A stretch of DNA of 54,411 bases, the filler included, from Sluysia triapertura (taxonomy: Eukaryota): assembly GCA_046118255.1 (NCBI GenBank). It is 4 parts of 4 records of this genome, joined end to end, with 100 filler letters (N's around TTAATTAATTAA, not from the genome) between each part and the next. Parts side by side here need not be neighbours in the genome. Positions count along the whole stretch, not along the records: positions 43,643 to 54,411 come from JBJNIA010193703.1; 3 more parts are not named here. One strand, written 5' to 3'. Both the position numbers and the translations under genes were made by a program. The first letter of the stretch is position 1; each line of letters starts with the position of its first letter. This document shows, one piece after another, positions 3,960 to 54,411 of the stretch. Below the pieces are notes generated by a model. It worked only from the letters and a program-made list of their open reading frames with translations. It had not been told where the DNA came from and did no database searches.

Positions 3960-5417
3960 TCGTAACACTATTATTAGTCCACCGAGTCGTCCTCATTGAG
4001 TAAATAGTCGTAGCGGAATAGGTAGTGAGAATTATTGTTACTTCGAAATTTCTTTGGATATAACAGCCGCAACTCGGGTGCTTCTCGATGATTCATTGAT
4101 GCAGTTGTTAAATTCGGAGTAATCGCTGGCAATTTGGTGAGCGGTGGATTAGTTGATGATGATATTTTAGTAGTTGTGATGATGATTATTTCAACGGTTT
4201 TACCAAATGTGGAATAGAAGTTAATGAAGAGATAGAAAAATAAGACAAAGAAGTAGAAGAAGGGGAAGAAGGGGAAGAAGGGGAAGAAGGGGAAGAAGGG
4301 GAAGAAGGGGAAGAAGGGGAAGAAGGGGAAGAAGAGGATGCAAGTTTTTGCTTTTTTAGAGGAGTAAGTTTGGAATCAGAAGCAGGGGCAGTAGAATGAG
4401 GTTTCTTGAAAAGAACAGGTACAGGATTATTACAGCGAGAAATGAACTGCAAATCTCGCTCCCTTATATAGTCAAGCTGGGTCACCAATTGTGAGGTCAA
4501 CACTGGGCTAACAGGTAAAATTAGTCGCAATGTTTGACGTGTTCTAATAAAAGGATCGTCAGTGGCAAAAGGAACCAAATTAAGGTTCTACAAATTAATA
4601 ATCCCTCTCAGCAATCCAAATGGAATATTCAAGGCCTCAATAAGAAATATGCGCAAAATTCCTATCGATTGGGAGCGGACATCGTGATGTCCTTAGCCAA
4701 CCTAAGATCGACGTCCGGATCGTTTGGATGTTACGCCTAAAATTCTGGATACGACACCGAGGTTTGATACGAGCCTCAGTATGAAAATGACGACTGTACG
4801 GAGTACAGGTCACACAAATTAACTGAGTGTTATTTAGGAGATCCGTGGCGTATTGAAAAGCTACAAGCACAAGTCTATCCTCATCATACGCAGAAAGAGG
4901 CGGAACGTGCGTGTGAAGAGCCGCCTTCCCATCGACTTACATTGTCGAAATCCTTTGCGAATGGAAAGAAAGAGGGAGCAAAAGAGGGTTGGACGGCAGA
5001 ACAAAAAGAAAATCAAGATGAGTTGGGAATTCAAGGGCTTCTCCCATAACTTTACAAGCCTTAGTCAAGTTTGAGAGATGAAGAGTCGAGTGATTCTCTA
5101 AATACAATAATAATGGGATTCCCTCGACCTCTAGAGTGATCTTACCTGCGCCCCGCTCAGATACTACATACATCGTATTAAAGTAGTCAGGCGCATTGGT
5201 TAGCCCCTGCAAAGAAATAAAGGGCAGCTCCGATGATAGAGCAAAGATGTCGGTTGCCACGTTATCAGTTAATTCGGTCTTTAGCTTACAGTCCGTGGTA
5301 AATGAGTTAGGAAAGAATTTAGGGGTATGATTTTCGACACAGAACCTATCGAGAGAAGAATATAAGATTTTGATCTAGCTGATTGTTCTGGCCTGGGGTG
5401 TTTTGACTCGATGTGTG
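3960..5417 (-). pseudogene. Unknown-domain protein, copy 2 (frameshifted, in-frame stops), with Ser/Pro-rich C-terminal tail
   Basis: ORF pieces 4937-5260, 4637-4870 and 4186-4578 are collinear homologues of 5603-6737 (PQAR..SLDRFC..P.FFPNSF..DC.LK.ELT; EALE[FY]PT; EAR[IV]KPRCRI.NF.RNIQ; TDD.FIR.RQTL; LDY[IV]RERD). Confidence 0.75.
4258..4333. repeat. (GAAGGGGAA)x8 pure-purine tandem repeat, encoding (SSP)n on the minus strand
   Basis: Read directly: eight GGGG runs at 9-nt spacing. Confidence 0.95.
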
Positions 5418-5517
5418 CTGGATTACGAAAATAAAATTTAAAATTTACTGTGAGATTTTCGCTTAGGAGGTTGGGGCTTGGTGTAGATGTTGATGATATC
5501 TGCGCTGATGAGGTTGT

Positions 5518-6737
5518 CTATTGTTGGTCATTACTTGTGGTAGCAGAAGATGATGGTAACGGCTCTGGTGATTGTTTTTTTATGGCATTGTGGTTTAATT
5601 GTTCATTCAGAAGGTAAAGATTTAATAGAGGATTTTTTAGAAGAAAAAAGAAAAGGCGGAAGATCATTGCAACGCTGTATAAAAGTAGTATCCCTCTCTC
5701 TAACATAGTCTAAAACAGTTACTAACTCTGACGCCAATTGTTTACAAGAGAATTTTAGGCATACGGGATAGACAAGTTTCAAAGTTTGTCGTGCCCGTAT
5801 AAAAATATCGTCAGTGGAATAAGAAATGAGGTTGTGATTGGACAAGTTCATCACACCTCGCAACCATCCAAACGGGATATCAAATGCCTCTATTATAAAA
5901 CGAGGGTGAAGGGAAACTAAAATTTTATTATTCAGGAACCCAAAAAGATATAGCCGGACATCGTCTATGTCCTTGGCCTCCCTAAGCTCAATATGAGAAA
6001 TATCCTGAATATTTCTCAAAAAATTTTTGATTCTACACCGGGGTTTAACCCTTGCCTCCAAATGAAATTGGCGATTATAGGGTGTGCAGGCTATCCCCGT
6101 GAGGTGAGGCTTATCAAAGAAATCGAAGGCATATTGATATGCCACAAAACAAGACGATCTTCGCCTTCAGCAGAATGGGTGGAACATGGGTGAATGATGT
6201 CCCACTGTTCCAACGATTCATGTTCGAGGAGTCCCCGGAAAAAGGGTTTGAAAGTGAGGAAGGAAAAGGAGCTGGAGGCAAAACGAAAAGGAGGGCAATT
6301 GAAGTTGGATATTCCAGAGCTTCAATGTTGATATCGCAATGAACATTTAAGGCTGAAAAAAGAATAGTGGATGGGCCCTCTAAACGCAAAAGCAATGGGG
6401 AATTTTTAACAGAAAGGATGACTTTTACGACGCCGCGTGCTATGGCTAAGTAAATGGTGTCGAAATTTTCGTGTATTTCTGACAAACCCTTTAAAGAGAT
6501 TTTCAGATTAGCTGGGATTAAGAGGAAAACGTTGGTTGCTAAATTTTGGGTTAATTCACTTTTCAACCTACAATCCATTGAAAAGGAATTAGGAAAAAAT
6601 GTGGGAGCGTTCTTATCTGCGCAAAAACGATCAAGGGAAATGTAAAATGATTTTAACTGTGAGGTGATGCGTGCCTGTGGAAGTTGAGATTGGGGTTGTT
6701 GTTGTTTTTTTTGAGATTGAGTAGTTCTTGATATTAA
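5518..6737 (-). pseudogene. Unknown-domain protein, copy 1 (~400 aa when frameshifts near 6140-6175 are bridged)
   Basis: ORFs 6114-6770 and 5603-6145 join through frameshifts (THVPP/..EDRLV/VAYQYA) where copy 2 reads THVPPLSAYDEDRLVLVAFQYA. Visibly more GC-rich than the flanks. Confidence 0.75.
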
Positions 6738-6879
6738 CTGAAGATTAGGAATAAAAAGATAAGAGAACAAAATAAGAACAAATCATACAAAAAACAAAAT
6801 AAAAAAAAGAAAAATGGCAAAAAACAAGATTTTTTGTTTTTCCGTAAACGGTATTATAATAAATGATAATATTTATAGA

Positions 6880-16977: not shown

Positions 16978-17077
16978 NNNNNNNNNNNNNNNNNNNNNNN
17001 NNNNNNNNNNNNNNNNNNNNNTTAATTAATTAANNNNNNNNNNNNNNNNNNNNNNNNNNNNNNNNNNNNNNNNNNNN
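16978..17077. other. Artificial contig linker
   Basis: 44 N + TTAATTAATTAA (stop in all six frames) + 44 N. Confidence 0.97.
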
Positions 17078-20399: not shown

Positions 20400-21830
20400 T
20401 CTGGATTAAAACGATGGATTTTCAAATTTTGTTGAACATGGCGTTAAACTTTTGAAGTTTCGGTATCAATTTCAACATTAATTATACCAGGCAAATTCTG
20501 AAAAGTTTTCTCAAATACTATTTTGAAATCAATTCTTAGAATACTTATTAGTAAAATCCTTGATGATTGTAACATATTATATTGTCAAAAATAACAAGGC
20601 TTCCACTTGCAGCTATCGTTATCATATTGTTGGAATTGCCCAACTGTGGATATGGAGACGAAGCAAAACATACAAAATCATAAAGTAAAGGAATAACTGA
20701 TACAAGTGATAGATTGAACCGTTGAAGTAAGAATCATAAAAATTAAAACATCTGCAATAATGGTAACAGCTAAAATATGCCTTGGAGTTCCAAGGACCTA
20801 TCTAAGGTGTTGAGGCCTTGTGAAGACTTGAGATAGACTTGGAAGACCATTAAAATCATTATGATATCTTTCAATTGACAGCCTTAATGTACATTTAATA
20901 TTCTTGAAACCTTGATAAGCATCTAAGATGTTATAGTAATCTTATACAGTGTTTATTATCTCTAAAATAGTTGAAAAATAAAATCATTGTTATTGGTATT
21001 AAGAATAAATCTAATATAGTAATAATTAACATGAAGAAGGAGAAAAGGAATCAGAAGGGTGAAGGTGAATTCCTTATAAACTAGTAAGTAACTTTAGAAC
21101 TTCAATAAAACCTTTAAACATGAAATAAGATTAAGTCTAAAAATGGATTAATCCATTAAGAAAAATTTTGTTTTTGTGAATAACTTTTGAATGCCGAATG
21201 CTATGTTAAATTTGAAACTGTGTATGTATTTGTTTTGAAAAGACCTTTTGATGAATGTATGGTTTGACTGAGTTCATGCAAGGAAAGCCTGAATATTGAA
21301 CAAAGTCAAATTTTAATTAATTTTTAATTATGGAATGTTGAATTTTTTATACTTAGAGTGATATAAATGTAATGAATTGAATATGAGATGATTGCTATGA
21401 AAGAATAGAATCTAGAAGTGAGTTTGAAATGTTTGTAGAGTGGTTTATTTGAGAAGAAGACGCTTAAAACATTTTTCATTCGATAATTGGGTGTGAAAAA
21501 TCGAAAATCAATTAAATTCTAAAAAGTGAAATTAAATTCATTATTTTTATGTGTGTTAATAATATTGTTGATTGTTATTTTAATATGAGAATTAATTTAA
21601 GTAAAAATAGATTGAGTAGAGTAAAAGAAAGTGATGGTTGATAATAAATCAAATTTTTGTGTTTTGTACCTAATGATGTTTGAGAGAACTTACCTTATAA
21701 TTGTCAAAGTTGTTATTCTCGGTTCATTTATCAAATAAGTTTTGATGTTTTGTGTGAGAAAGTGTTTGATTGTGAAACCTAAGATTGATTGGATGATGAG
21801 AGAGTATAAAATGAAAAACATAAAACTTTT
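20400..21830 (-). mobile_element. Decayed repeat carrying signal-peptide ORF remnants
   Basis: 21230-21760 aligns by eye with 29350-29800, and 20625-20700 with 29828-29895. Minus-strand starts MFFILYSLIIQSILG and MILYVLLRLHIHSWAIPT. Confidence 0.5.
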
Positions 21831-23329: not shown

Positions 23330-23640
23330 ATGTAAATTTACGTGTATATAAATTTAAACGTAAAATACTTGAAGAAAGTGAATTAGTAAGAACATCGTTT
23401 TTAGTATATGGGTAGAAAAATCTTACTTAAATTGCTAATTACTAATCTAACAAATATCAACTATTGATTTTACCATAAATTAATAAACTAAGCGGATCCA
23501 GAATAAATACCAGTTATTAAAATAATTATAGACTACATCAATCTCCATTAACTATTCTTATTGCTACTTACGACTTAGCCCTTAAGTGTGTAAGTCTGAG
23601 ATAGTATGGAACTCAGAAATTACATTTTAATATAAAATAA
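23330..23640 (+). repeat. Dispersed non-coding repeat (LTR- or 3'UTR-like), homologous to 50640-51000(-)
   Basis: ACTTAGCCCTTAAGTGTGTAAGTCTGAGATAGTATGGAACTCAG versus ACTTAGCCCTTAAGTGAGTAAGTCTAAGATTGTAAAGGACTCAG, plus collinear upstream blocks. Confidence 0.6.
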
Positions 23641-29189: not shown

Positions 29190-29933
29190 GAAAACATCTA
29201 GAACCCTCGGAGTGCCTTATAAAGTAGCAAACAAAAAGAAAGTCAAAAATTAGATTGATTAATTAAAAGCTTAACTTAATTAAAGAAAAGTACGTTTTTA
29301 TGAATAATGTTTGAATGTTGAATGTTTTATCAAAGTTAGTTTTGTTATATCGGTGTTTGTTTTGAAAAGATATATTTATGAAGATATGGTTTAATCGAAA
29401 AATTCTTAGTTCTGGAATACTGAATTTTTCATATTTAAAATGATGAAAAAATAATGAATTGAAGGAAGAGAATCTAGAAATGCATCTGAAATGTTATTAG
29501 AATGATCAATTTGAGAATAAGAACTTTAAAAATTTTCCATTAGAAAATTGAGTGTGAAATAGTATAAAAATTAATTTAATTCATTATTTTTATGTATGAC
29601 TGATAATACTAATGATTGTTATTTTAATGTGAGAGGTAATTTATATTAAAGTAGATCGAGTAGAGTAGAAGAAAATAATGGTTGATTATTAATCAAATTT
29701 TTAAATTCCTCAAAAAATAAAGTATGACAGACTGTACCACGTAATTGGCAAAGCAGTTATTGTCGGTCTGATTCTCAAAAGAAGTTTGGATCAAGTGTTA
29801 TTATTATTTAATAATTTTGAAGTCAAATGTTGGGATTGCCCAACTTTGGATTAGGAGACGAGTAGAAGACATATAGAATTATAAATAAAGGGAAAAATTG
29901 ATGAGAAGTAGCAGATGAAGTATTATAAACATT
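29190..29933 (-). mobile_element. Decayed repeat, same family as 20400-21830 and 34360-34650
   Basis: GCTACTTTATAAGGCACTCCGAGGGTTCTAGATGTTTTCAC (-) versus GCTACTTTATAAGGTACTCAGGAGGCTCTAGATGTTTTCAC at ~34454(+); the remainder aligns with 21230-21760. Confidence 0.55.
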
Positions 29934-30033
29934 NNNNNNNNNNNNNNNNNNNNNNNNNNNNNNNNNNNNNNNNNNNNTTAATTAATTAANNNNNNNNNNN
30001 NNNNNNNNNNNNNNNNNNNNNNNNNNNNNNNNN
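29934..30033. other. Artificial contig linker
   Basis: 44 N + TTAATTAATTAA + 44 N. Confidence 0.97.
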
Positions 30034-32408: not shown

Positions 32409-34359
32409 TATTAAAAGCTTTGTCAGAATTTAATCATTTATTACAAATCCTTTTCATAGAATTTACGAAAAATATTCCTTAAATAATTATTTAATAAAAA
32501 TATTTGAATTTACTGTCATTTTTTAAAAAGCACCTCTAGAACTTAACTTAACTTCATTGAGCATTTAGGCAAGCATTGAGTTATATTTTTAATCTTTTTA
32601 ATTGCAAAAATCCAACGGCTAGCCCTAACTGGTAAGCCTAGTACGTTGGTAGACTCACGTTAAAATTCTATTTTAGTCTATAAGTCTCTTATCTTTTAAA
32701 ATCACCTGCAATTTAAACAATAAATTTTAAAATTTTTTCAATTTAAACTTTTTAATTCTATTTTCATTTTATTAAAATTTTTGATTTTAAATTTTATTTT
32801 TTGGATTCCATATTTTCTTTTTTACCATATTTTTCTTTTTTAATTTTGATATAATAATAATTAATAATTAAATATTATATGAGAATTTATATAAATTTAT
32901 ATTCAAAAAATATTTTACAAATTTTACATTCTAACAGTTACATTCTGACAGAATTAATATTGAAAAACAAGAACACTACATACTACAAAAAATCAACAAA
33001 CGCATTCACTGTGTGTCAACAAATACACACAAACCAAAAATAGTATCAACATCAACATTATTAATGTTTCAGTACAGACGTTGATAACACCCAATAGCAT
33101 TCTCACTAAAACATTAAGATTGCGATCCATTATTGGAATTTCGCGTTTTTGGTTACCATCCGTAACTCCGGCTAAAAGCAATGACCCAGCACAATTAATC
33201 TAAAATTCATCAAGAAACAGTTATTTCGAGTATCCGTAATTTGAATATTAATAATTTATCCTTTCTATTAGGAAAGATAAAATATTACTCAAAATCTTTA
33301 ATTGAATGTTTAGTTTAGGCTAAACATAATTTGATTTTTAAAATTTTTAAAATCAATTCTCGTAACAATCCTTTATTTATTATATTATATTCTGTCAAAT
33401 AAAATATTGTTGTACATTGAAAGATTCTCGATTGAATATTGGTATTTGTAGATAATAAATATAAAGGAAAGTCTAGTCTTTTCTTTTAATTAGTGTGAAG
33501 TTTGTATAAATTTAGAGTCAAATTAAAGAAAATAGTTATACGCGAATCTTTTAAAAGATTTCAAATAGATAATTATTTTGCTTAGACTAAATTAACTTTA
33601 ATAATTTAAGTTAACAGTTTATATCTTATAGTCAACAAAAGACCGAAGAGCATTAATAGTTACTTATCAAGAAGAGACAATTGAATAAAAGTCGTTGCTA
33701 TTAATTAAAGGTACTATCAAGTATAAAATAAATTTACTTATCTAGAAGTTATTTTAAAACGCTTTATAAAAGTATACACCAATAAAAGTAATTAGATTCT
33801 GGGAATTAAAAGAGATCTGAATAAAAGTAATTATATAATACAATATTAATTTGTTAGCATTTGTGAACTAATTAAAACTTAAACTACCCCTATAAATTAA
33901 GCGAATCGACATTAAAAGCTGGTGGAATTTTTTCCTATAAGTTAAGTATAACTTTAAAAACGTGAACATTGAATAAAGTTTTATCGATTAAGACATAAAC
34001 GAGATAATTGTAGGGGTTAGATAATCACTTATTGAGGAAAATTAAGATTAATTAAAAGAAGTTAATTTGGTTAATAACAAGGTTAAGTTTAATTTGTGCT
34101 AATAAATATAAGTTACGAGTAGAACGTTTTGATGTTAATTTTATAAGTTAGGTTTAAACCGTATATCGTAGGCGGACTTTGATTATTAATTCCAATTTGA
34201 AAAAGTATAAGAAAAACATTAGCATTTGTTCAATATGGAGGATTTCTTCGCACGAACTCGGTCAGACCTTATTTTCATTGGATGATCTCTCTTTAAAACA
34301 CATACATTCACAGTTACAATTTTAACATAGCATTCCTTATTCAAAAGAAAACATAATTT

Positions 34360-34650
34360 TTCTTAAGTTAATTAAGATTTTAATCAATTAATTAATTATT
34401 TTAACATATTTTATTCTAAGCTTAAAGGTTTTATTATGGTTATAAAGTTGTTAGCTACTTTATAAGGTACTCAGGAGGCTCTAGATGTTTTCACCTTCAT
34501 CACTCTGTTTCCTTTTTATACTTTTTTATTTTAATTATCAATGTATCATATTTATCTTTAATATTATTAACCATGATTTTAATTTTTGAACATTTTACAA
34601 AGTTACTCGAAGGTCTTAAAAGTCTTCATGAGTCTTAATACCCTAAGTTG
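34360..34650. repeat. Dispersed repeat modules shared with 29190-29290 and 20790-20850
   Basis: Collinear near-identical blocks seen by eye. Confidence 0.5.
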
Positions 34651-41204: not shown

Positions 41205-43542
41205 TCAAAATAATGACAATAATTTACAAATGCTTACATTACGAAAGTACTGAATATCTCTTAGAAATAATAAAAAATTTGGAAAGCAAGATGAATATTT
41301 CATTGAGACATAATAATAATCTATACAGAATCTACTGTAATAATAAAAGCTAGGTACGAACTCGACGACTTTTAGAATTTTTTGAATTATATTTTTCATT
41401 GTTTCATCATCATTTTGATATTTAAATGATACTCCGGTGAAATCAAGAGAATTAACATTCGCGTTACAATAGTTGTACAAATTCTATTGAAGCTTCTTAA
41501 TTGGTTATTTATACAACTAAATATGATTACTTTCTTTAAAATTATTTCAACATAGTTCATTTTCAAGACATTCTTCTTCAAATATATAAAACTGTTTAAT
41601 TTATCCTCTCTACCAATATAGTAAGACAATCTGTAACACTGTACAATAATAAGTTGAATAATAAAACATGCAATAATAAGGGACTTCGATATTTTAAAAA
41701 TTAATTAATTTTTTATTGATTTGATTAAATTTAACAAAATATTATTTAAATATTCATTGTACTTATTAAAAATAATTAGTATAATAAAAATTGATAAATA
41801 TGTAGATAGAAATAATTTTTAATATTAAAGCATTATTGTAAATAATAAATGTCTTAACGATTATTTTATTTTTATTTATATTATTAGTGACTGCGGGAGT
41901 ATTTTTTTATTATTTATAACTGTTTTATATTTATTTTATTATTTACTGACTAAATGAGTATCTTCATATCTTTTTAATAGCCATTTTATTATCAATTGAT
42001 TTCTTTATTTTTACTGCTATATTATTGGTTATTATTAAATACCGAAATAATAATTAAAATAGAAATTCTCGTGTTATATCTTGGACGTCATATTTGGTAC
42101 AATCATCGATCAACTTACTTGCAATCTTTTAATCATTATTCAAATTACCGTGATCGCAAGATTGACTTTTAAGAGGATCGTCTTACATAAAACTTAAAAT
42201 CATTAATTTTTGCACAATTGCAAACTTATTTCTAAAATCCCCAATAAATATTAGAGCAAAAAACTAATATTTCAAATATCATATTATACCTTATATTTTT
42301 AGTTATTCATATGTAATTTATTTGTTTTGTGTTTTCCTTTAATTAATGTAAGATTACATTGAATTATTACCCAGGTACTCGAATTCGAATAAAATATTCA
42401 TAAATTGACCAAGCAAAGTACTGATGCCATTTTTGGGAGACAAATTATTTTTATCTGCATCACTTAATACAGTGATTAAAACAAGAAACATAAAGATGTG
42501 CAAGGAAACATGACATTATGGGGTGTAATGTTGTTATTAATGAATTATAATGATTTAAAGTTGTAAAAGATTTTGAGGGCGTTAATTGATATAAAATATA
42601 AAAATATTCGTGGAATTTAAATTTTGAAGTATTATATTTATCTATATTGTTATCAAAATTCAATAATTTAAATATTCTAATATTAGACTGGACTAGATCG
42701 ACAACTTTTAAAATTCCATAGAATTCAATCGTCCGTTTACACATTATTTTAATGATAAGGTATTTAAAATTACGTTCTATAATTGCTTCTGATACGTGAC
42801 CTACATCCAGAAATGATTCGTTTCTGGTTTTAATTCTATAAAATGAAATTATCTTAAATTTATTAAACAGTTTTTTTTTATTTGCGTCATATAAACAGAA
42901 AAGTTGAACACGTGTAGGATTACAATTTATTAAACTTTGTGAGTTATTTAAAAATATATACAATTTTGGAAAATTTTGTATAAAATCCAGCATCCCTTCA
43001 TCCCGGAATCCTTTTTCGTATTTGAATAAACGATTAGCACTATAATAGATAATATAGAAATAATCATTATAGGTAAAATAATAAATAAAATTTAATGTCA
43101 AAGTATTACTTTTAATATCTTCAGATTTGTCGGACATGACTACTCGAAGCGTATAATCCCAAAGTGTCTTCATCGAATTCGAGACGAATCTGCGGCATCT
43201 TAGCTGAGTATGTTCACCACTATTAAAACTGATCGAGTCAAGAACCTGCTCTTTTTCATGACAATTATCTTCGTAATCTTCATTACCTTCTTCCACTTCT
43301 TCATCAATTGATTCATCATTTTCTTCAACATCAGTTTCATTATTTTGAGATACTATCTTTTTCTTGGGTCGTTCATCAACAAAATTGCTGCAATAAGAAG
43401 CACCGTTTTGATTATCATGTTCAGTTGTAACATTGTTCTGATTAACTAATTCAACATTTTCTTCATCCAAATTATCATTACTACTATTATTCCTTTCACA
43501 TGTCATTACACAACTGGATTTTAGCTCTAGATCTTGACGCCT
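41205..43542 (-). pseudogene. Uncharacterised, probably multi-exon gene with acidic N-terminal region; 3' part decayed, 5' end cut by the contig end
   Basis: 348-aa ORF 42460-43506 is open up to the linker and contains a likely in-frame intron (GTAATAC..TATTATAG, ~43040-43110). Further coding-like blocks at 42060-42230 (in-frame TAA) and 41205-41630 follow AG acceptors. Confidence 0.4.
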
Positions 43543-43642
43543 NNNNNNNNNNNNNNNNNNNNNNNNNNNNNNNNNNNNNNNNNNNNTTAATTAATTAANN
43601 NNNNNNNNNNNNNNNNNNNNNNNNNNNNNNNNNNNNNNNNNN
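43543..43642. other. Artificial contig linker
   Basis: 44 N + TTAATTAATTAA + 44 N. Confidence 0.97.
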
Positions 43643-46771: not shown

Positions 46772-47710
46772 CAGGGTTTTAACCTTGAATTTCGAATTTT
46801 TAAACAACAATTTTGAATTTTTTAAATCAAAGAATAAAAAGAGAAAATTAAACATTACAAACATACTAGACCACGAAATTTAAATTAATCAAAATCATTA
46901 CTAAATTTAATAATGGGCTCTTTAGTGATTGATATTAGAAACCACTACAATGTAATTAAACAGTTTTTCGTTTTTCGGTTTTTATCTGTCTAAAATACTT
47001 TTTCCATTTCAAAAAGTCATTTTCGATAGGATTCAAAAACGAAGAATATGGTGGTAAGTTCATAATTTTAAATCCTTTATTTTCGATTAAATTCTCAATC
47101 GCTGGAGACTTATGGAAGCGAACTTTATCTATTATGATAACAGAATTATTTCTTCCTTCTTCAATGAGATCTGTAAGTAGGTTTTCTAGAAATTCTTCAA
47201 AACTTGACGTATTATACAATTTTATACAATATATTTCTTGACCTTACATTTCTTACTTTGTGTGTAGCTCGAGAACCCTTTAAAGAACGACCATAGAGTG
47301 CATTAAAACCGATTTCATCAATAAAAATTATGTTAGATTCATCACTACTTCTATCTTGAGTATATTTAGCCTTCCCTTCAATATTCGCTGCATCATGTTC
47401 TAAAGAAATTCTTTATATATTTTGTTATTGTGACAATAGAAACATTCAAGTTTTTCCTTTTTTCAGTTTCGGTTCTGATAAAATCGATATGAACTTAGCT
47501 AAACATTTTTGAAACATATTACTTATGGAGTAAACTGTTGGTAGTTTTATGTGATATTTTTAAATATATTTCTATCAAAAATGCTTCAATTATTTTTTTC
47601 TTATTACATTGGAAACTTTCATTTTAAGGCTAAATTTCCTTTATTACAAATATAAGTGAGAAATATCAATTTTTTATTTTATAAAAATTCAAAATTACAA
47701 GTTAACAGAA
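46772..47710 (-). mobile_element. IS630/Tc1-like DDE transposon, decayed
   Basis: TA|CAGGGTTTTAACCTTGAATTTCGAATTT terminus with a degenerate inverse near 47680-47710; catalytic-region motifs NIIFIDEIGF, IIIDKVRFHKS and LPPYSSFLNPIE. Confidence 0.8.
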
Positions 47711-48360: not shown

Positions 48361-48501
48361 TAAGTTGCCGTTATTGTTAAAAGAACAACAAATAGAAGCA
48401 ACAGAAAAAGGAATTTCGAAATTATTCAACAGAATTGATAAAGACAAAAATAACAAATTAACTCATGAAGAATTAAAAGCATGGATTATTGATTTATATG
48501 A
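48361..48501 (+). CDS. Internal exon of an EF-hand protein, CREC (reticulocalbin/calumenin)-like
   Basis: AG|..|GT bounded 141-nt symmetric exon encoding ISKLFNRIDKDKNNKLTHEELKAWI; neighbouring exons unresolved. Confidence 0.6.
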
Positions 48502-49261
48502 GTTAGTTATTGAATTGTATTTCTTTCAATAGTTAATTAATTTAATTAGATATATAAAAATTAATTTTTTTTTGTTTTTGTTTTGTTAATAATTCAATTA
48601 ATTTTGAATTTATTTTACTTATTTTAATATTTATTATTTTATGCATAATTTACGTTTGTATATTGTATAACTTGTTTTTACTTATTGTTTTTGTACATTT
48701 TTGGTCCAAAGTTTTAAAAATTATTAAATTATTAAATTAATTTTAGTCACTATGAAATATTCAGTTAACTTTTAATAGAGGGTTTTGAGGGATATCAACT
48801 TGGTTCTATAATTAATTAAAATTAGGGCTGGGACTTTGAAGGATTTTCCCTATTCAATAATTAAACTCGCAGTGAATGATTTAATAATAATGTATTATTC
48901 AGTCAAATATAATATAATAAAAACAATAATGAATTTCGATGGCTTTTTAATAAAATAAAGGTAGAACCAGATGTATATATTATACTATATATGTATATTA
49001 TACAGTATATAATGAAACACCTACAAACAACTATTATTCCAAAATGAGACATGTTTTTTATTTTAAAACATTGATTGCCCAATTAGAAATTTATTGTAAA
49101 TATTCTAGAATTTTATTTCAAAAAACACTCAAGAAGGATAATAAAAATAAATGACCACTATACTGTCATTTATTTATTGATCATGTTCATAAGTTAAAAT
49201 CAAAAACCGGTGCAGAAAACTGGTGCTCCAGCCCCAGTATATAGTTATTCGTAGACTTCAG

Positions 49262-49264
<3 letters not shown>

Positions 49265-49313
<49 letters not shown>
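49265..49313. repeat. (ATT)n microsatellite
   Basis: Read directly. Confidence 0.95.
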
Positions 49314-49314
<1 letters not shown>

Positions 49315-49917
49315 GAAAGAATCCGTCTTAGAAAATCACCACTGGTCATTCAGTCTATCAGTTCTTCAAGAAATTGGATTATTTTCTCACTTTTCACAAG
49401 ATCTATGGTTAATTTTTATTTTAACACAAGATTAGCCGTAAAGAATATTTCTCTGTATGTGAAATACATTATTTAGTTAAATTGAAAAGATTAATTTAAA
49501 ATAATTAAAAATTTAACTTTTAGTATTGAATATTTCTATAAAAATGCTAAATGTAAACATTTATCAATAATATAATTTATTTAATAATAATAGTTGAGTT
49601 AAAGGCAAAGATTGGTTCATTTAACTGGAATATATGATTTTGAGCGTTTTGATTGGTTGAAATACGGTAGTTTAGTGCGGACTGGTTGATTGTAGTGCAT
49701 CAGTTTTTAATTTGAATTTGATGTTAGTAAGTGGTAATACATTTTTTTATTTTTGTGTAATTTTATTCGAAATAATTTTATTTTGTGCATTAATGCTAAA
49801 GTGTTTACATGTTGACGAAAAAGTAGTTAATCAGAAAATGAGTCCAATGACATTACATGTCTTATAATATGCTACCACTTATATTCGTGTACCTATCCTG
49901 GTATTGTTTGTAAATAC

Positions 49918-49941
49918 ACGGGCCGCACTTTGACACCACTG
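49918..49941 (-). mobile_element. Single hAT terminal repeat
   Basis: CAGTGGTGTCAAAGTGCGGCCCG on the minus strand; other end not found. Confidence 0.5.
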
Positions 49942-50639
49942 ACCTATATAATGTAGACAATAATTTTATATATTTCGTTAGATGTTTCTACGGTTAGTTT
50001 GGTCTATGAAGGTATTATGCTCAATTCTGATCTAATCAGTACCTCTGTCATCGCTGTTGGAGAGTGAAGTTTGCCATTATTTTATTTTACATAATTATTA
50101 TAATTGAAATATTCTTAGATTTTCTTAAATCTGAAACAGTTTGTCTTACATAACTTGTTCTACTTCTTTTGTGGTAAAACTGCAGTCAAATGAAGTTAAC
50201 TTGTTTAGCTGTATGACAAAATCTTACATTAGTATATCGTTTTTTCAAGAATTATGATTGTTTGAATTATAATCAATATAAATTTGATTAAATTTAACTG
50301 CTCTCTGAATTTTACTATGAAGTACACCTAATATTGTTTATTTGTAAGAAACTCCAATGTTCGCGAATTAATATTAATTTTTTAACTGTTCAATCTAGAT
50401 TCAGGAACTAAAGGTCAGTCATTTATCTTATTCGGATTAAGTGATAGTAGATCATAACAGATGTTGATTAACTAATTCTAAAGATTGACTTTAACCACTT
50501 AAAATAAATTTATTTTTGAGGGCTACCAATACACAGAGTAAAATTGTACAAAATATGTATATAGCAAGTAAAATAACCTAGTAAAATTCCATTTTCAATT
50601 ACTAATACCAAATCCAAATTTAATACTAAATGTTAAAGC

Positions 50640-51000
50640 TAAGTTTTATATGTTATGCTAAGTCTTTGCTTAAATTTTATTTTCTTGTGCTGAGTCCTTT
50701 ACAATCTTAGACTTACTCACTTAAGGGCTAAGTTGTAAGCAGTATTTTAGAAGAACTTATATAGAGTTACAAGTATGCTTATTTTGAGTCAATTATATAT
50801 ATTCTGAGAAAGGTTTATCGTGGCTTATGCGGTATTTATTTTAGTCCTTTAAAAATTTTATCAAGTATTATGTTCAATCACAAATGACACTGAAACTCAA
50901 ATTACAACTATTATTTTAAGTGAAAAATTTGCAACCGTATATCAAAAACGGTGAACCTTAATTAATAATTTCTCTTTTAATTATAAATTACGTGTATTTT
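50640..51000 (-). repeat. Dispersed repeat downstream of the env-bearing element; candidate 3' LTR or UTR
   Basis: Homologous to 23330-23640; TG..CA ends and a polypurine tract were not resolved. Confidence 0.5.
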
Positions 51001-51489
51001 TCGACCGATTAAAATCAGCGATCTTTAAAAAACAAAATGAATTAAAATTAAATAAATTTAATGTAATGTATTATAGCAATTAACAAAAAATTAACAAGCG
51101 TAATAAATTTTACAAACGTATTTATATAATAACAAAATTTAAGTAAGATTAATATATCATCTTTAAAAATGGATTTTATGAAATGTTTTCACTTTTCTTA
51201 AAAAGGAATGTCAAATAATTTTTAAAAATATTTTGAGGAGAATTTTACGATCTGGTAAAACAGAATGACTTAAATCAATCAAACTAACGATCTTTTTTAT
51301 GTTAAAACTCTTGAGAACAGGAACAATCGCTGAAGTTATATCGGAAGAGCTGCGTGGACAAATTAAACTTTAAAAACCTATTGTATCCACCTTGTGTATT
51401 TATATTTTATTGTGTGGCCTTTGTGATCCAGTTGCAATTGACACTAATAATAATATAGTAAGTAATATTGTCTCGTCGAATATTATTAG

Positions 51490-52190
51490 TTCTTAAGATC
51501 CTATTACAAGTAATAATATAATAAATACTAAATAGCAAGTATATTATGGTAAAAAGAAATTTGTACTATCTTCATTCTTTTTCATTATTGTATTCGTACT
51601 TATTTCTTTATTTGTTGAACTTTCCAAAGCATGTTACTGTTGTTGTTGCTATTGAAGTTTACTTATAAAATTGTCCATTAAGTATGCGTGTAAAAAGTTA
51701 ACTGTTATCAATTTACTATCATAAAACGAAAATCCTATTATGGTAGTAAATTAGATTGAGTGTTCACATTGATAAATATCATCTATTAACAAAGGTTTCT
51801 TTATTAATAATGGTTTCCAATAGATGCAATTTCTATTTCTAAATTGTAATTAGATATTTCATTTCTGTCGTCTATTTCAACTGTACAAAATCGATTTAAA
51901 ATATTTGTTGGAAATATTGCTTGTTTCGTATCGATGTAACTTGTTAAGTTTACTTGATAATGCGTTATCATGGTTGTTAATTGAAATAGCAATAATATGA
52001 AAGTTATATAAAGAAATATATTATTTGGAATTCCTCTTATAAACATTACGCTGCTATTACTATTACTACTATTGTTAGTACTATTGTCATCATTATTATC
52101 TGTTCCTATACCTGAAGTCGAAGAAGCCGTGGTGTCCCACCAATCAAGATTTTCCCAATTTTGAGTTGGTGATGGTGGTATGATTGGATT
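51490..52190 (-). pseudogene. Accessory type-I membrane-like protein (Ser/Asn linker, hydrophobic signal, ectodomain, C-terminal TM)
   Basis: NPIIPPSPTQNW..NSSNSNSSV-MFIRGIPNNIFLYITFILLLFQL; after a frameshift NKKPLLIDDIYQCEHS..Q*QQQQ*H..YTCYLVFIILLLVIGS*. Confidence 0.5.
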
Positions 52191-52620
52191 TAATAAGTAA
52201 TTTGATAATTTTGTGGTAATGGTTGTACTGCTCTTGGTATTGAAGGTAAAACTAATTGTAGTAACACTACATGTGTACCTAAAGGTATTTTAAGGAATCC
52301 TAATCTTCCGTGTATTACTACATTTTCCAATTTACTTAATACATCCATACCTAATATAATTTCATAGGGGCATCTATCCCTAGCTAATATTGTTACAAAT
52401 AGATCCACATCTAATATTGTTAGTTGACATTGTAATATACCATTAAATAAGATATTTGAACCATCTACATCAGAGTCGTATGCCAGCTTGTTTTAATATA
52501 TAAATTTCTAATGCATTTAATGTATTATAATTAATAATAGTATTATTTGAACCTGTATCTATAACTGATCTTTCTCATCCTTGATTGAATTTAATACTTT
52601 GTATTAGATGGTTATATTTA
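52190..52620 (-). pseudogene. Second retropepsin-like aspartic protease
   Basis: SVIDTGSNNTII (DTG at 52551-52559), flap-like DVDGSNILFNG, and CPYEIILGMDVLSKL; interrupted by frameshifting. Confidence 0.8.
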
Positions 52621-52739
52621 TAGATGTTATCATATTTATTGAAATGATTGGTTTAGGTGGTTTGTCTCTATCTTTAGTTCTTGGTTTCACTTTTAGAATA
52701 CTTTTTGTAACTTTTCTATTTCTTAAATTATTCTTCCTT

Positions 52740-52935
52740 AGGTGCTAATTTGCAGCGATTTACATGTACGACAAGTTTCAGCATTTGTATCAGTTATATC
52801 CTTTAAATGATTTGTGTAATTTTGGAGAAAATCCTGGTTTAGAGGTATTGGTTAATCTACTAATATTTTATCTCCAACTTTGAAATTATGTTCTTTAGTT
52901 TTTTTTATCATAAGCATTTTATAAATTTTCTGAAT
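52740..52935 (-). pseudogene. Ty3/gypsy integrase C-terminal (GPY/F-region) remnant
   Basis: Bridging frameshifts: NAYDKK/TKEHNFKVGDKILV/KPGFSPKLHKSFKG/VVHVNRCKLAP. Confidence 0.7.
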
Positions 52936-53489
52936 CAAATTCTACAAACTGAGTCAGGTGTTCCTATATTTAATTTTCCTTGATTAATTTTTGAAGCAAT
53001 AAACATTATTGGATCATTTCTCAAACTTTTTGTTTTTCCTGGTATTATAGATTCGGTTCTACTAAGTAACCATCGAGGTTCTTCTAATATTACGTCATCA
53101 TCATCTATTGGTCTATCAGTATATGTATCCATTAATCTTGCTTTATTAAAATCTAATGAAACTCCTTTTAGTTGAGACAGTACATTCATGCCTAATATCA
53201 TATCTTCGTAGAATTTTCTCATTACTCTACATTTTATTTCAATTTTATTTTGTCCAATTTCACATAATATTTTTAATACTCCTAATATTTCAATTTCGTC
53301 TCCAGAAACTCCTGTAAGGTACGAATGTTGTTTAGCTAGATTATTAAGTTCTTTAGTAGTTAACAATGATTCACTTATTAAAGAAGCTACGGCTCCTGTG
53401 TCTACTAATGCAGATAACATACTTCCATTAACCCTCATATCTACCATAGGTCTTTTTGCACTATTATAGTTATTATTCGTACATATCAT
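52935..53489 (-). pseudogene. Retropepsin aspartic protease fused to a post-deletion fragment
   Basis: RPMVDMRVNGSMLSALVDTGAVASLIS, LTGVSGDEIEILG, DMILGMNVL; no RT motifs follow. Confidence 0.88.
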
Positions 53490-54411
53490 ATAAACTAAAT
53501 TTTTTGAAGGTTGATATAATACTTTTTTCTTCTTTAGTTTGTTCAGAATTACTTACTTGTTCTATGTTAATTGTTTGTAAAGCAATCTCTTCTGTTTGGT
53601 TTCTTTCTTTTTTCCAAGCATTTAGTTGAGCATGAGCATGATGATGTGATGAAAATTTAGCTAGAAACGGGAAGCACCCTAATATTAATTTCCACGTAAA
53701 TCTAGATATTTTAGAAATACCTACTACAGAAAATATTTGTGATATTAAAAGAGCAATATACCTATCAATCCAGAAAAAGTTTGCCCTATTACTAAGAAAT
53801 TTCTCCAAATTTGTTTTAGAGTATTATGTGCTGCCTTTTGAAAATGATCTGGTCCTAATAATAATTCAAAATTTAGTTTTCCATCTTTTTCTATAATTGC
53901 TTTATCAACGATATCGGTTAATACTTTTGATCTCTCAATTGGGAATAAAATTTCGTGCCAAGCTGCTTGTATATCTTCATTAGAATACATTCCTGATCTT
54001 GGAATATTTTTGGTAGCTGAGAATTTTAATTTAGATTTTAATTCTGTTAAACCAATAGTTTCTGGAATTTTAACTTGACTTCTATGCGATAAAGATATTC
54101 AAAGATTATCATCAATTTTATATTCTGGTGCCATTACATTAGAACAGTGTAGTGCTTCGGTTTAAATTTATTGGTTAGCATAATTATTCTCGTAAATAAG
54201 TATTTTGATTTTTATATACTACTGGCAATTCATTTGTACAATCATTTTCTTGTCTAATTTGAACTTCTACTTTTTTACATTTATATGTATATAAAACTTC
54301 ACCCATTAGTCTACCGAATACTCCTTCTTCTAACGGAAGTAATGGTGCTACTAAATCTGGGTTAGTTATTGCTATCGCTAATTTAGTTCTAAGTATTTCT
54401 TTATTTAGTTG
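53473..54411 (-). pseudogene. Chuvirus-like / herpes gB-type (class III) envelope glycoprotein, C-terminal portion
   Basis: Manual translation: QLNKEILRTKLAIAITNPD..GVFGRLMGEVLYTYKCKKVEVQIRQENDCTNELPV..TRII..CSNVMAPEYKI..SGMYSNEDIQAAWHEILFPIERSKVL..IWRNFLVIGQTFSGLIGI..TWKLILG. Matches in order the motifs I recall from chuviral-type glycoproteins (GEV....C..VEV..R....C..ELPV; SGIYS.ED......I.FP.E). Confidence 0.8.

Follow-up and report, generated by a model that had tools for sequence, protein, structure and literature searches.

The window analysed here, a stretch of 54,411 nucleotides from Sluysia triapertura made up of joined parts, consists of AT-rich animal DNA (mostly 20-29% GC) and contains a WD40 gene, a GPCR and a DCAF12-like gene, as well as the remnant of a retroelement at its end (Table 1). 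The introns of the WD40 gene, which we take to be CIAO1-like, are about 30 nt long, a sign of a compact animal genome. Two tandem, diverged copies of a coding region of no named family (48% and 52% identity to one another) occupy positions 4189-6782 on the minus strand in DNA of locally higher GC content, and a Pfam scan of four pieces of these copies returned zero matches. Zero Pfam matches were also obtained for an open frame of 360 codons, the N-terminal part of which is acidic (42463-43542, minus strand). A remnant of a Tc1/IS630-type DDE_3 transposase (Pfam E 4e-16) is located at 46959-47243 on the minus strand, a repeat of about 400 bp is dispersed in copies that are approximately 70% identical at 20963-21746, 29279-29791 and 34225-34597, and a segment of 53 bp at 50690-50742 matches 23564-23616. 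The gaps at 16978-17077, 29934-30033 and 43543-43642 have the uniform form of 44 N, 12 bases and 44 N, and represent filler between the joined parts.

Table 1. Features of the window, with the pieces of the retroelement remnant listed from the window end inwards
Feature	Position	Strand	Remarks
WD40 gene	680-1780	minus	introns ~30 nt
Env ectodomain, piece 1, gB/chuvirus-type class III fusogen	54187..54411	-	PF24664 340-411, E 3.9e-16
Env ectodomain, piece 2, to membrane-proximal region	53748..54158	-	PF24664 424-559, E 8.8e-19
Env membrane anchor and cytoplasmic tail, third piece	53476..53823	-	stop-free; hydropathy peak 1.62
Retropepsin 1, catalytic DTG ~53402	53166..53450	-	gag-asp_proteas E 5e-11; family profile 76 bits
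Linker, precedes RT in relatives	52938..53165	-	aligned with protease to P0051, P0053, P0055, P0056, P0057, P0060
Deletion junction	52930..52942	-	coordinate jump in alignments to six relatives
Integrase C-terminal tail, degenerate GPY/F-module region, three frames	52722..52942	-	profile from relatives
Retropepsin 2, two frames, DTG ~52559, after integrase tail	52325..52601	-	profile 14.3 + 28.8 bits
Stop-free stretch, 161 codons, hydrophobic segment 52019-51963	51807..52289	-	placed by position only

The remnant lies on the minus strand of the last part of the window, where pieces of an envelope gene (env) are followed by a protease, and it runs off the end at 54411. The second env piece has one internal stop and is in a different frame from the first, which is 57-69% identical to most of its closest relatives. 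Both pieces score above the curated cut-off of 27 bits for PF24664 (Monjiviricetes_fusion), the match of the second being that of the translation of 54212-53748 with stops read as X. The stop-free stretch 53823-53476 gave no match of note in a Pfam scan; within it, 53760-53540 aligns with the anchor and tail of the relatives' env at 31-52% identity. Retropepsin 1 resembles the protease that stands last before RT in the relatives, with the copy of relative P0055 as the best match. The integrase tail scores 18.0, 13.5 and 12.5 bits against a profile built from the relatives, the next match in the window reaching 3.7 bits. For retropepsin 2 the next profile match in the window is 1.4 bits; this second protease has a Pfam RVP_2 match with an E-value of 0.0055 and is collinear with the stretch from integrase tail to protease in P0060 (E 1e-7). 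The sequence-only reading had identified the C-terminal half of a chuvirus/gB-type glycoprotein with an anchor and a cytoplasmic tail, a protease frame open from about 53550 and a Ty3/gypsy-type integrase tail, and these assignments are borne out by the matches given here and by a protease frame that is open from 53552 to 52938.

The element was placed by means of env, protease and integrase tail because no RT is present, and the N-terminal half of env, gag, PBS and the 5' LTR would lie beyond the window end. A profile scan of the whole window for RT, RNase H and the integrase core gave best scores of only 2.9, 4.3 and 4.4 bits, respectively, indicating that they are absent. About 2.6 kb is missing at position ~52935, corresponding to approximately 865-890 codons of six relatives, which encode RT, RNase H and the zinc finger and core of the integrase. 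An assembly collapse of a repeat, rather than a real deletion, could also produce such a loss and would leave the element type unchanged. The stretch does contain three gaps, where filler joins its parts, and the window ends inside the element, but the junction itself has no gap and the pieces flanking it have decayed independently, and we therefore regard a collapse as unlikely. Downstream of the integrase tail, no 3' LTR, repeat partner or purine tract of at least 11 nt was detected at 48500-52300. With its broken frames, and with RT, RNase H and the integrase core gone, the window copy is dead.

An overlap between the env and protease frames had also been noted from the sequence. The overlap is real, amounting to 77 nt (53552-53476) between the protease frame and the env-tail stretch. 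Decay is its most plausible explanation, given that env and protease share a single frame in the relatives. If the overlap were functional, env and pol would be encoded in separate frames, with a programmed frameshift or splicing connecting them. The A-rich runs in the overlapping open frames would be in line with such a mechanism, as would two relatives, P0012 and P0016, that stop shortly past the env anchor. However, the two frames are not offset in the usual minus-one manner, further frame breaks are present in env, in the integrase tail and in the second protease, and P0054, which is a close sibling of P0012, continues into the proteases. A functional overlap thus appears improbable.

For the class of the envelope we relied on the intact env of P0012, the structure of which was predicted with a 30-sequence alignment at a mean pLDDT of 75.9. 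The fold comparison with chuvirus G and herpes gB that had been proposed for the window glycoprotein gave a positive outcome with this relative. In a fold search against the PDB the top matches were all herpesvirus gB (best E 3.1e-14), albeit with TM-scores of only about 0.3, and in the viral library BFVD the top matches were chuvirus-type glycoproteins (best E 1.4e-39). When P0012 was used to search the PDB by sequence, zero fusogens were recovered, and weak matches to Bcl-xL at the N-terminus only. Together, the PF24664 matches in the window and the predicted fold of the relative support the assignment of the window env to the class III, gB/chuvirus-type fusogens. Residues 9-82 of P0012, which are helical and precede the env leader, are the segment with the weak similarity to Bcl-xL (E ~0.01), which may be due to chance.

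A search of the longer proteins with the window protease as query found nothing. A profile-free search of a protein library with the unbroken 117-aa piece of env yielded 47 matches at E<=1e-3, the best of which were long proteins, and cluster-member look-ups together with a second search brought the total to 60 proteins. We mapped 24 of the 60, namely the longer env-linked ones, and excluded stand-alone glycoproteins, short fragments and three unrelated matches. The protease follows env within the same ORF in 22 of the 24 mapped relatives, 12 of which extend to RT and 11 to the integrase; P0012 and P0016 stop just past the env anchor. In 10/24, the same ORF also has a CCHC knuckle upstream of env. 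In the window, 119 codons separate the protease from the membrane-proximal env motif, as compared to 131-374 codons in the 20 of 22 relatives in which the motif was found, and there is therefore no room for an LTR or a gag gene in between. Furthermore, single tblastn chains for P0001 and P0006 span env, anchor and protease collinearly. A tree of 48 rows inferred from the 117-aa piece places the window among the polyprotein-linked envs and the stand-alone glycoproteins apart from these, with a split into 32 versus 16 rows that has a support of 100/98 under a midpoint root. The 117-aa query is likewise 37-45% identical to gypsy polyproteins versus 25-35% to stand-alone glycoproteins.

Because of the shared ORF, the spacing and the env-piece tree, we consider both a nesting of elements and a chuvirus insertion to be unlikely. 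The env and the protease could in principle belong to two nested or adjacent elements, since the frames of the env tail and the protease differ in the window and since the second protease scores best against the last-before-RT proteases, which could mean that it stems from a second copy. Against this, the junction is in one frame in nearly all mapped relatives, its length in the window is short, and the two collinear chains cover both sides of it. A protease after the integrase is, moreover, present in 7/11 integrase-bearing relatives, and P0060 aligns over both the tail and the protease. We therefore judge two separate elements to be very improbable. Even less credence can be given to the idea that a gypsy remnant happens to adjoin a chuvirus gene that became endogenised, or a Bel/Pao capture of the Anakin type. 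PF24664 is a chuvirus-type family, the BFVD search led to chuvirus-like glycoproteins, and captures of such glycoproteins by Pao elements have been published, as described for Anakin in PMC7642597. The nearest proteins are, however, the gypsy polyproteins, with the less similar stand-alone glycoproteins across the 100/98 branch, and the relatives are without any Bel/Pao domain. Thus, the claim that env lies directly before pol in one element holds on the comparison of sequences, and the related suggestion of a single polyprotein agrees with the predicted single ORFs of the relatives, the window copy being frame-broken.

Each of the 11 relatives that reach the integrase is predicted as a single ORF, with lengths of 2,627-4,844 aa; the set includes near-sibling pairs and represents about eight lineages, and the single-ORF status was read from predicted proteins for which the genetic code is unstated. 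The general layout of the ORF begins with Gag (CCHC), a hydrophobic leader, the gB-type Env ectodomain and a membrane anchor, continues with one to five retropepsins that precede RT, RNase H, integrase and zero to two retropepsins, and ends with a second hydrophobic leader, one to three FN3-like modules, a Ser/Thr-rich stalk, an anchor and a tail. The order protease, RT, RNase H and integrase is found in 11/11 integrase-bearing relatives, of which the window keeps the protease followed by the integrase tail. RT_RNaseH and Integrase_H2C2 domains occur in the relatives, the GPY/F motif is present in 11/11 and degenerate in the window, and a Pfam scan of 30 proteins recovered zero Bel/Pao gag or protease families. 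The element type is hence supported, by domain content and order, as Ty3/gypsy.

The number of proteases per relative ranges from one to seven, with at least two before RT in 10/12 RT-bearing relatives and one or two after the integrase in 7/11, and the catalytic motif is intact in 51 of 52 copies. Although the protease tree is poorly resolved (11/31 branches starred), a weakly supported branch (79/81) has the last-before-RT copies together on one side, and the extra copies are scattered in the tree. Other domains are inserted in some polyproteins: ankyrin repeats were identified in P0051 (residues 1895-1963, between proteases), P0054 and P0055, and a C2H2 finger in P0051.

After the integrase, 10/11 relatives continue in frame with the leader, one to three Cys-containing modules, the stalk and the C-terminal anchor of the second membrane protein, the exception being P0057. 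The modules are homologous: when each of seven lineages was held out in turn, 10/10 proteins scored above 200/200 shuffles, in a test that favours a positive outcome in that the training modules were chosen by motif. A contig scan with P0006 found no relative in 21 candidate stretches. A second contig scan recovered 31 gypsy loci, 0 of them with env DNA, and only two loci close to the family, L001 and L002, both of which are short. Both lie outside the training set and have the layout of the relatives at the DNA level; the DNA of L001 has a match to the module profile (E 3e-4), and that of L002 is interrupted by only two stops across the 4.6 kb between the protease and the last anchor. Among the 31 loci, an in-frame hydrophobic stretch after the integrase was observed only in L001 and L002, several of the other 29 being truncated or broken.

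A model of the modules of P0048 is weak (mean pLDDT 42.6, rising to 59-75 at residues 311-360) and displays two beta-sandwiches, the best match of which is human fibronectin (Z 9.9, rmsd 2.2, 84 residues aligned). Many FN3 rows follow at Z 8-8.7, along with other Ig-like sandwiches, and Foldseek also leads towards FN3, as does an Atlas score of 0.89 for the post-integrase modules, which is a lead only. From these models the modules are likely to be beta-sandwiches; that they are FN3 proper has moderate fold evidence and is not proven. In the window, the second membrane protein was undetected by module profile, whole-region profile, Pfam and Atlas. The stop-free stretch listed last in Table 1 sits where this protein starts in the relatives, and 35 of 114 control stretches are equally hydrophobic. 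The one match of the whole-region profile in the window (49041-49319, plus strand) was rejected, as it is an ATT microsatellite and not a second membrane protein. The window copy, which shares the post-integrase protease, may nevertheless once have carried such a protein.

We interpret the remnant, with a probability of roughly 90%, as a decayed, internally deleted GAG-ENV-POL LTR retroelement of the Ty3/gypsy type that belongs in or near the errantivirus lineage of Schmidtea mediterranea. The sequence-only reading had held out the prospect that env before pol is a new arrangement. This did not stand, because GAG-ENV-POL elements with an HSV/gB-type env and Ty3/gypsy affiliation have been published from Nematoda, Bryozoa and Platyhelminthes (Chary and Hayashi, eLife 2026; PMC13524379); the order is already known, and the window adds one dead copy. 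Nor can the Tor elements of Oikopleura, which had been named as a possible precedent, serve as one. They are also env-bearing Ty3/gypsy elements, from an invertebrate chordate, but in the account of Tor in PMC4402516 env is the third ORF, located after pol and expressed via splicing or an internal promoter. Closer in kind are the non-canonical ERVs of nematodes in which the positions of env and pol are flipped (Sacco et al., 2022, J Gen Virol 103:1739), known here by their citation in PMC13524379, which like the window element are metaviruses carrying, in front of pol, a glycoprotein gene acquired by capture. The Anakin elements of mosquitoes likewise carry a chuvirus-like glycoprotein in an LTR retroelement, but these are Bel/Pao elements and not Ty3/gypsy (PMC7642597); they were compared by their description, and in our tree the window env is apart from the stand-alone chuvirus-type glycoproteins.

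The flatworm elements listed in PMC13524379 are nine in number, six of them from Schmidtea mediterranea with 1-215 copies. These six, Smed_errantivirus_1-6 (Platyhelminthes_C1a, 'ancient errantiviruses'), resemble the window and its relatives in having a Ty3/gypsy pol preceded by a gB-type env, and are intact whereas the window copy is broken. In the env domain I-II rows given there for Smed_errantivirus 1-6, the motifs and Cys pattern match those of the relatives, as judged by eye. Eight Smed env motifs occur in order, with 5-8 of the 8 found in 15/17 close relatives (the other two had a wrong start anchor) and 1-3 of 8 in five distant proteins, and among the rows of supplementary file 2 of PMC13524379 five-letter motif matches were restricted to Smed. 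The link thus consists of short motifs located in the relatives' N-terminal env domains, a region absent from the window. The fusion into one ORF, the multiple proteases and the post-integrase membrane protein of the relatives are undescribed in the main text of PMC13524379, in which 'fibronectin', 'polyprotein' and 'single ORF' occur 0 times and 'protease' once; the published Smed elements may well have the same anatomy. A search of the open-access PMC and bioRxiv literature found no multi-protease or FN3-bearing retrotransposons, which may be present in Repbase, in subscription papers or in figures, and the anatomy of the relatives, with one ORF, one to seven proteases and a post-integrase membrane protein, was not found in print.

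How might such a polyprotein work? Viral polyproteins threaded through membranes provide the general model. In the relatives, we infer, the polyprotein would be threaded through the ER membrane. The two leaders would play the part of internal signal sequences, and the anchors that of stop-transfer signals. Leaders and anchors would alternate the chain across the membrane, and therefore Gag, the proteases and Pol would be cytosolic and the two ectodomains luminal. Cleavage by signal peptidase and the element's own proteases would then set the parts free, and fusion of the particle with a target cell would be brought about by Env trimers, by analogy with gB. More speculatively, the FN3-like protein could attach to, or trigger on, target cells, and the extra proteases could cut separate cytosolic segments or form single-chain dimers. 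The lineage would then combine, in one membrane-threaded polyprotein, a gB-type fusogen before pol, a fast-evolving FN3-like type I attachment or trigger protein after the integrase, and several proteases that process the cytosolic segments, a scheme that we put forward tentatively and consider possible rather than probable. Alternatively, the second membrane protein could be an immune modulator or a neutral passenger. Because its frames are broken and its RT, RNase H and integrase core are gone, the window copy performs none of the proposed functions.

In PMC13524379 the entry of gB-bearing errantiviruses is stated to be unknown, and the mechanism is considered open because herpes gB requires partner glycoproteins. 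The second membrane protein with FN3-like modules could be a candidate attachment partner for the gB-type fusogen, and if this is true, the two-part entry machine would address that question. Such an arrangement would be a retrotransposon counterpart, by analogy, of the split attachment and fusion systems of herpesviruses and paramyxoviruses. If the multi-copy elements of Schmidtea also have a second membrane protein, the system would be accessible in a laboratory animal. A single ORF with up to seven retropepsins also raises the question of how the amounts of Gag, Env and Pol, and their cleavage, are controlled. Finally, members of this retroelement family (P0006, HBK71150.1, and the loci L001 and L002) are deposited in bacterial MAG records, including those of Flavobacteriaceae and Turicibacter, and these most likely represent contaminating animal DNA.
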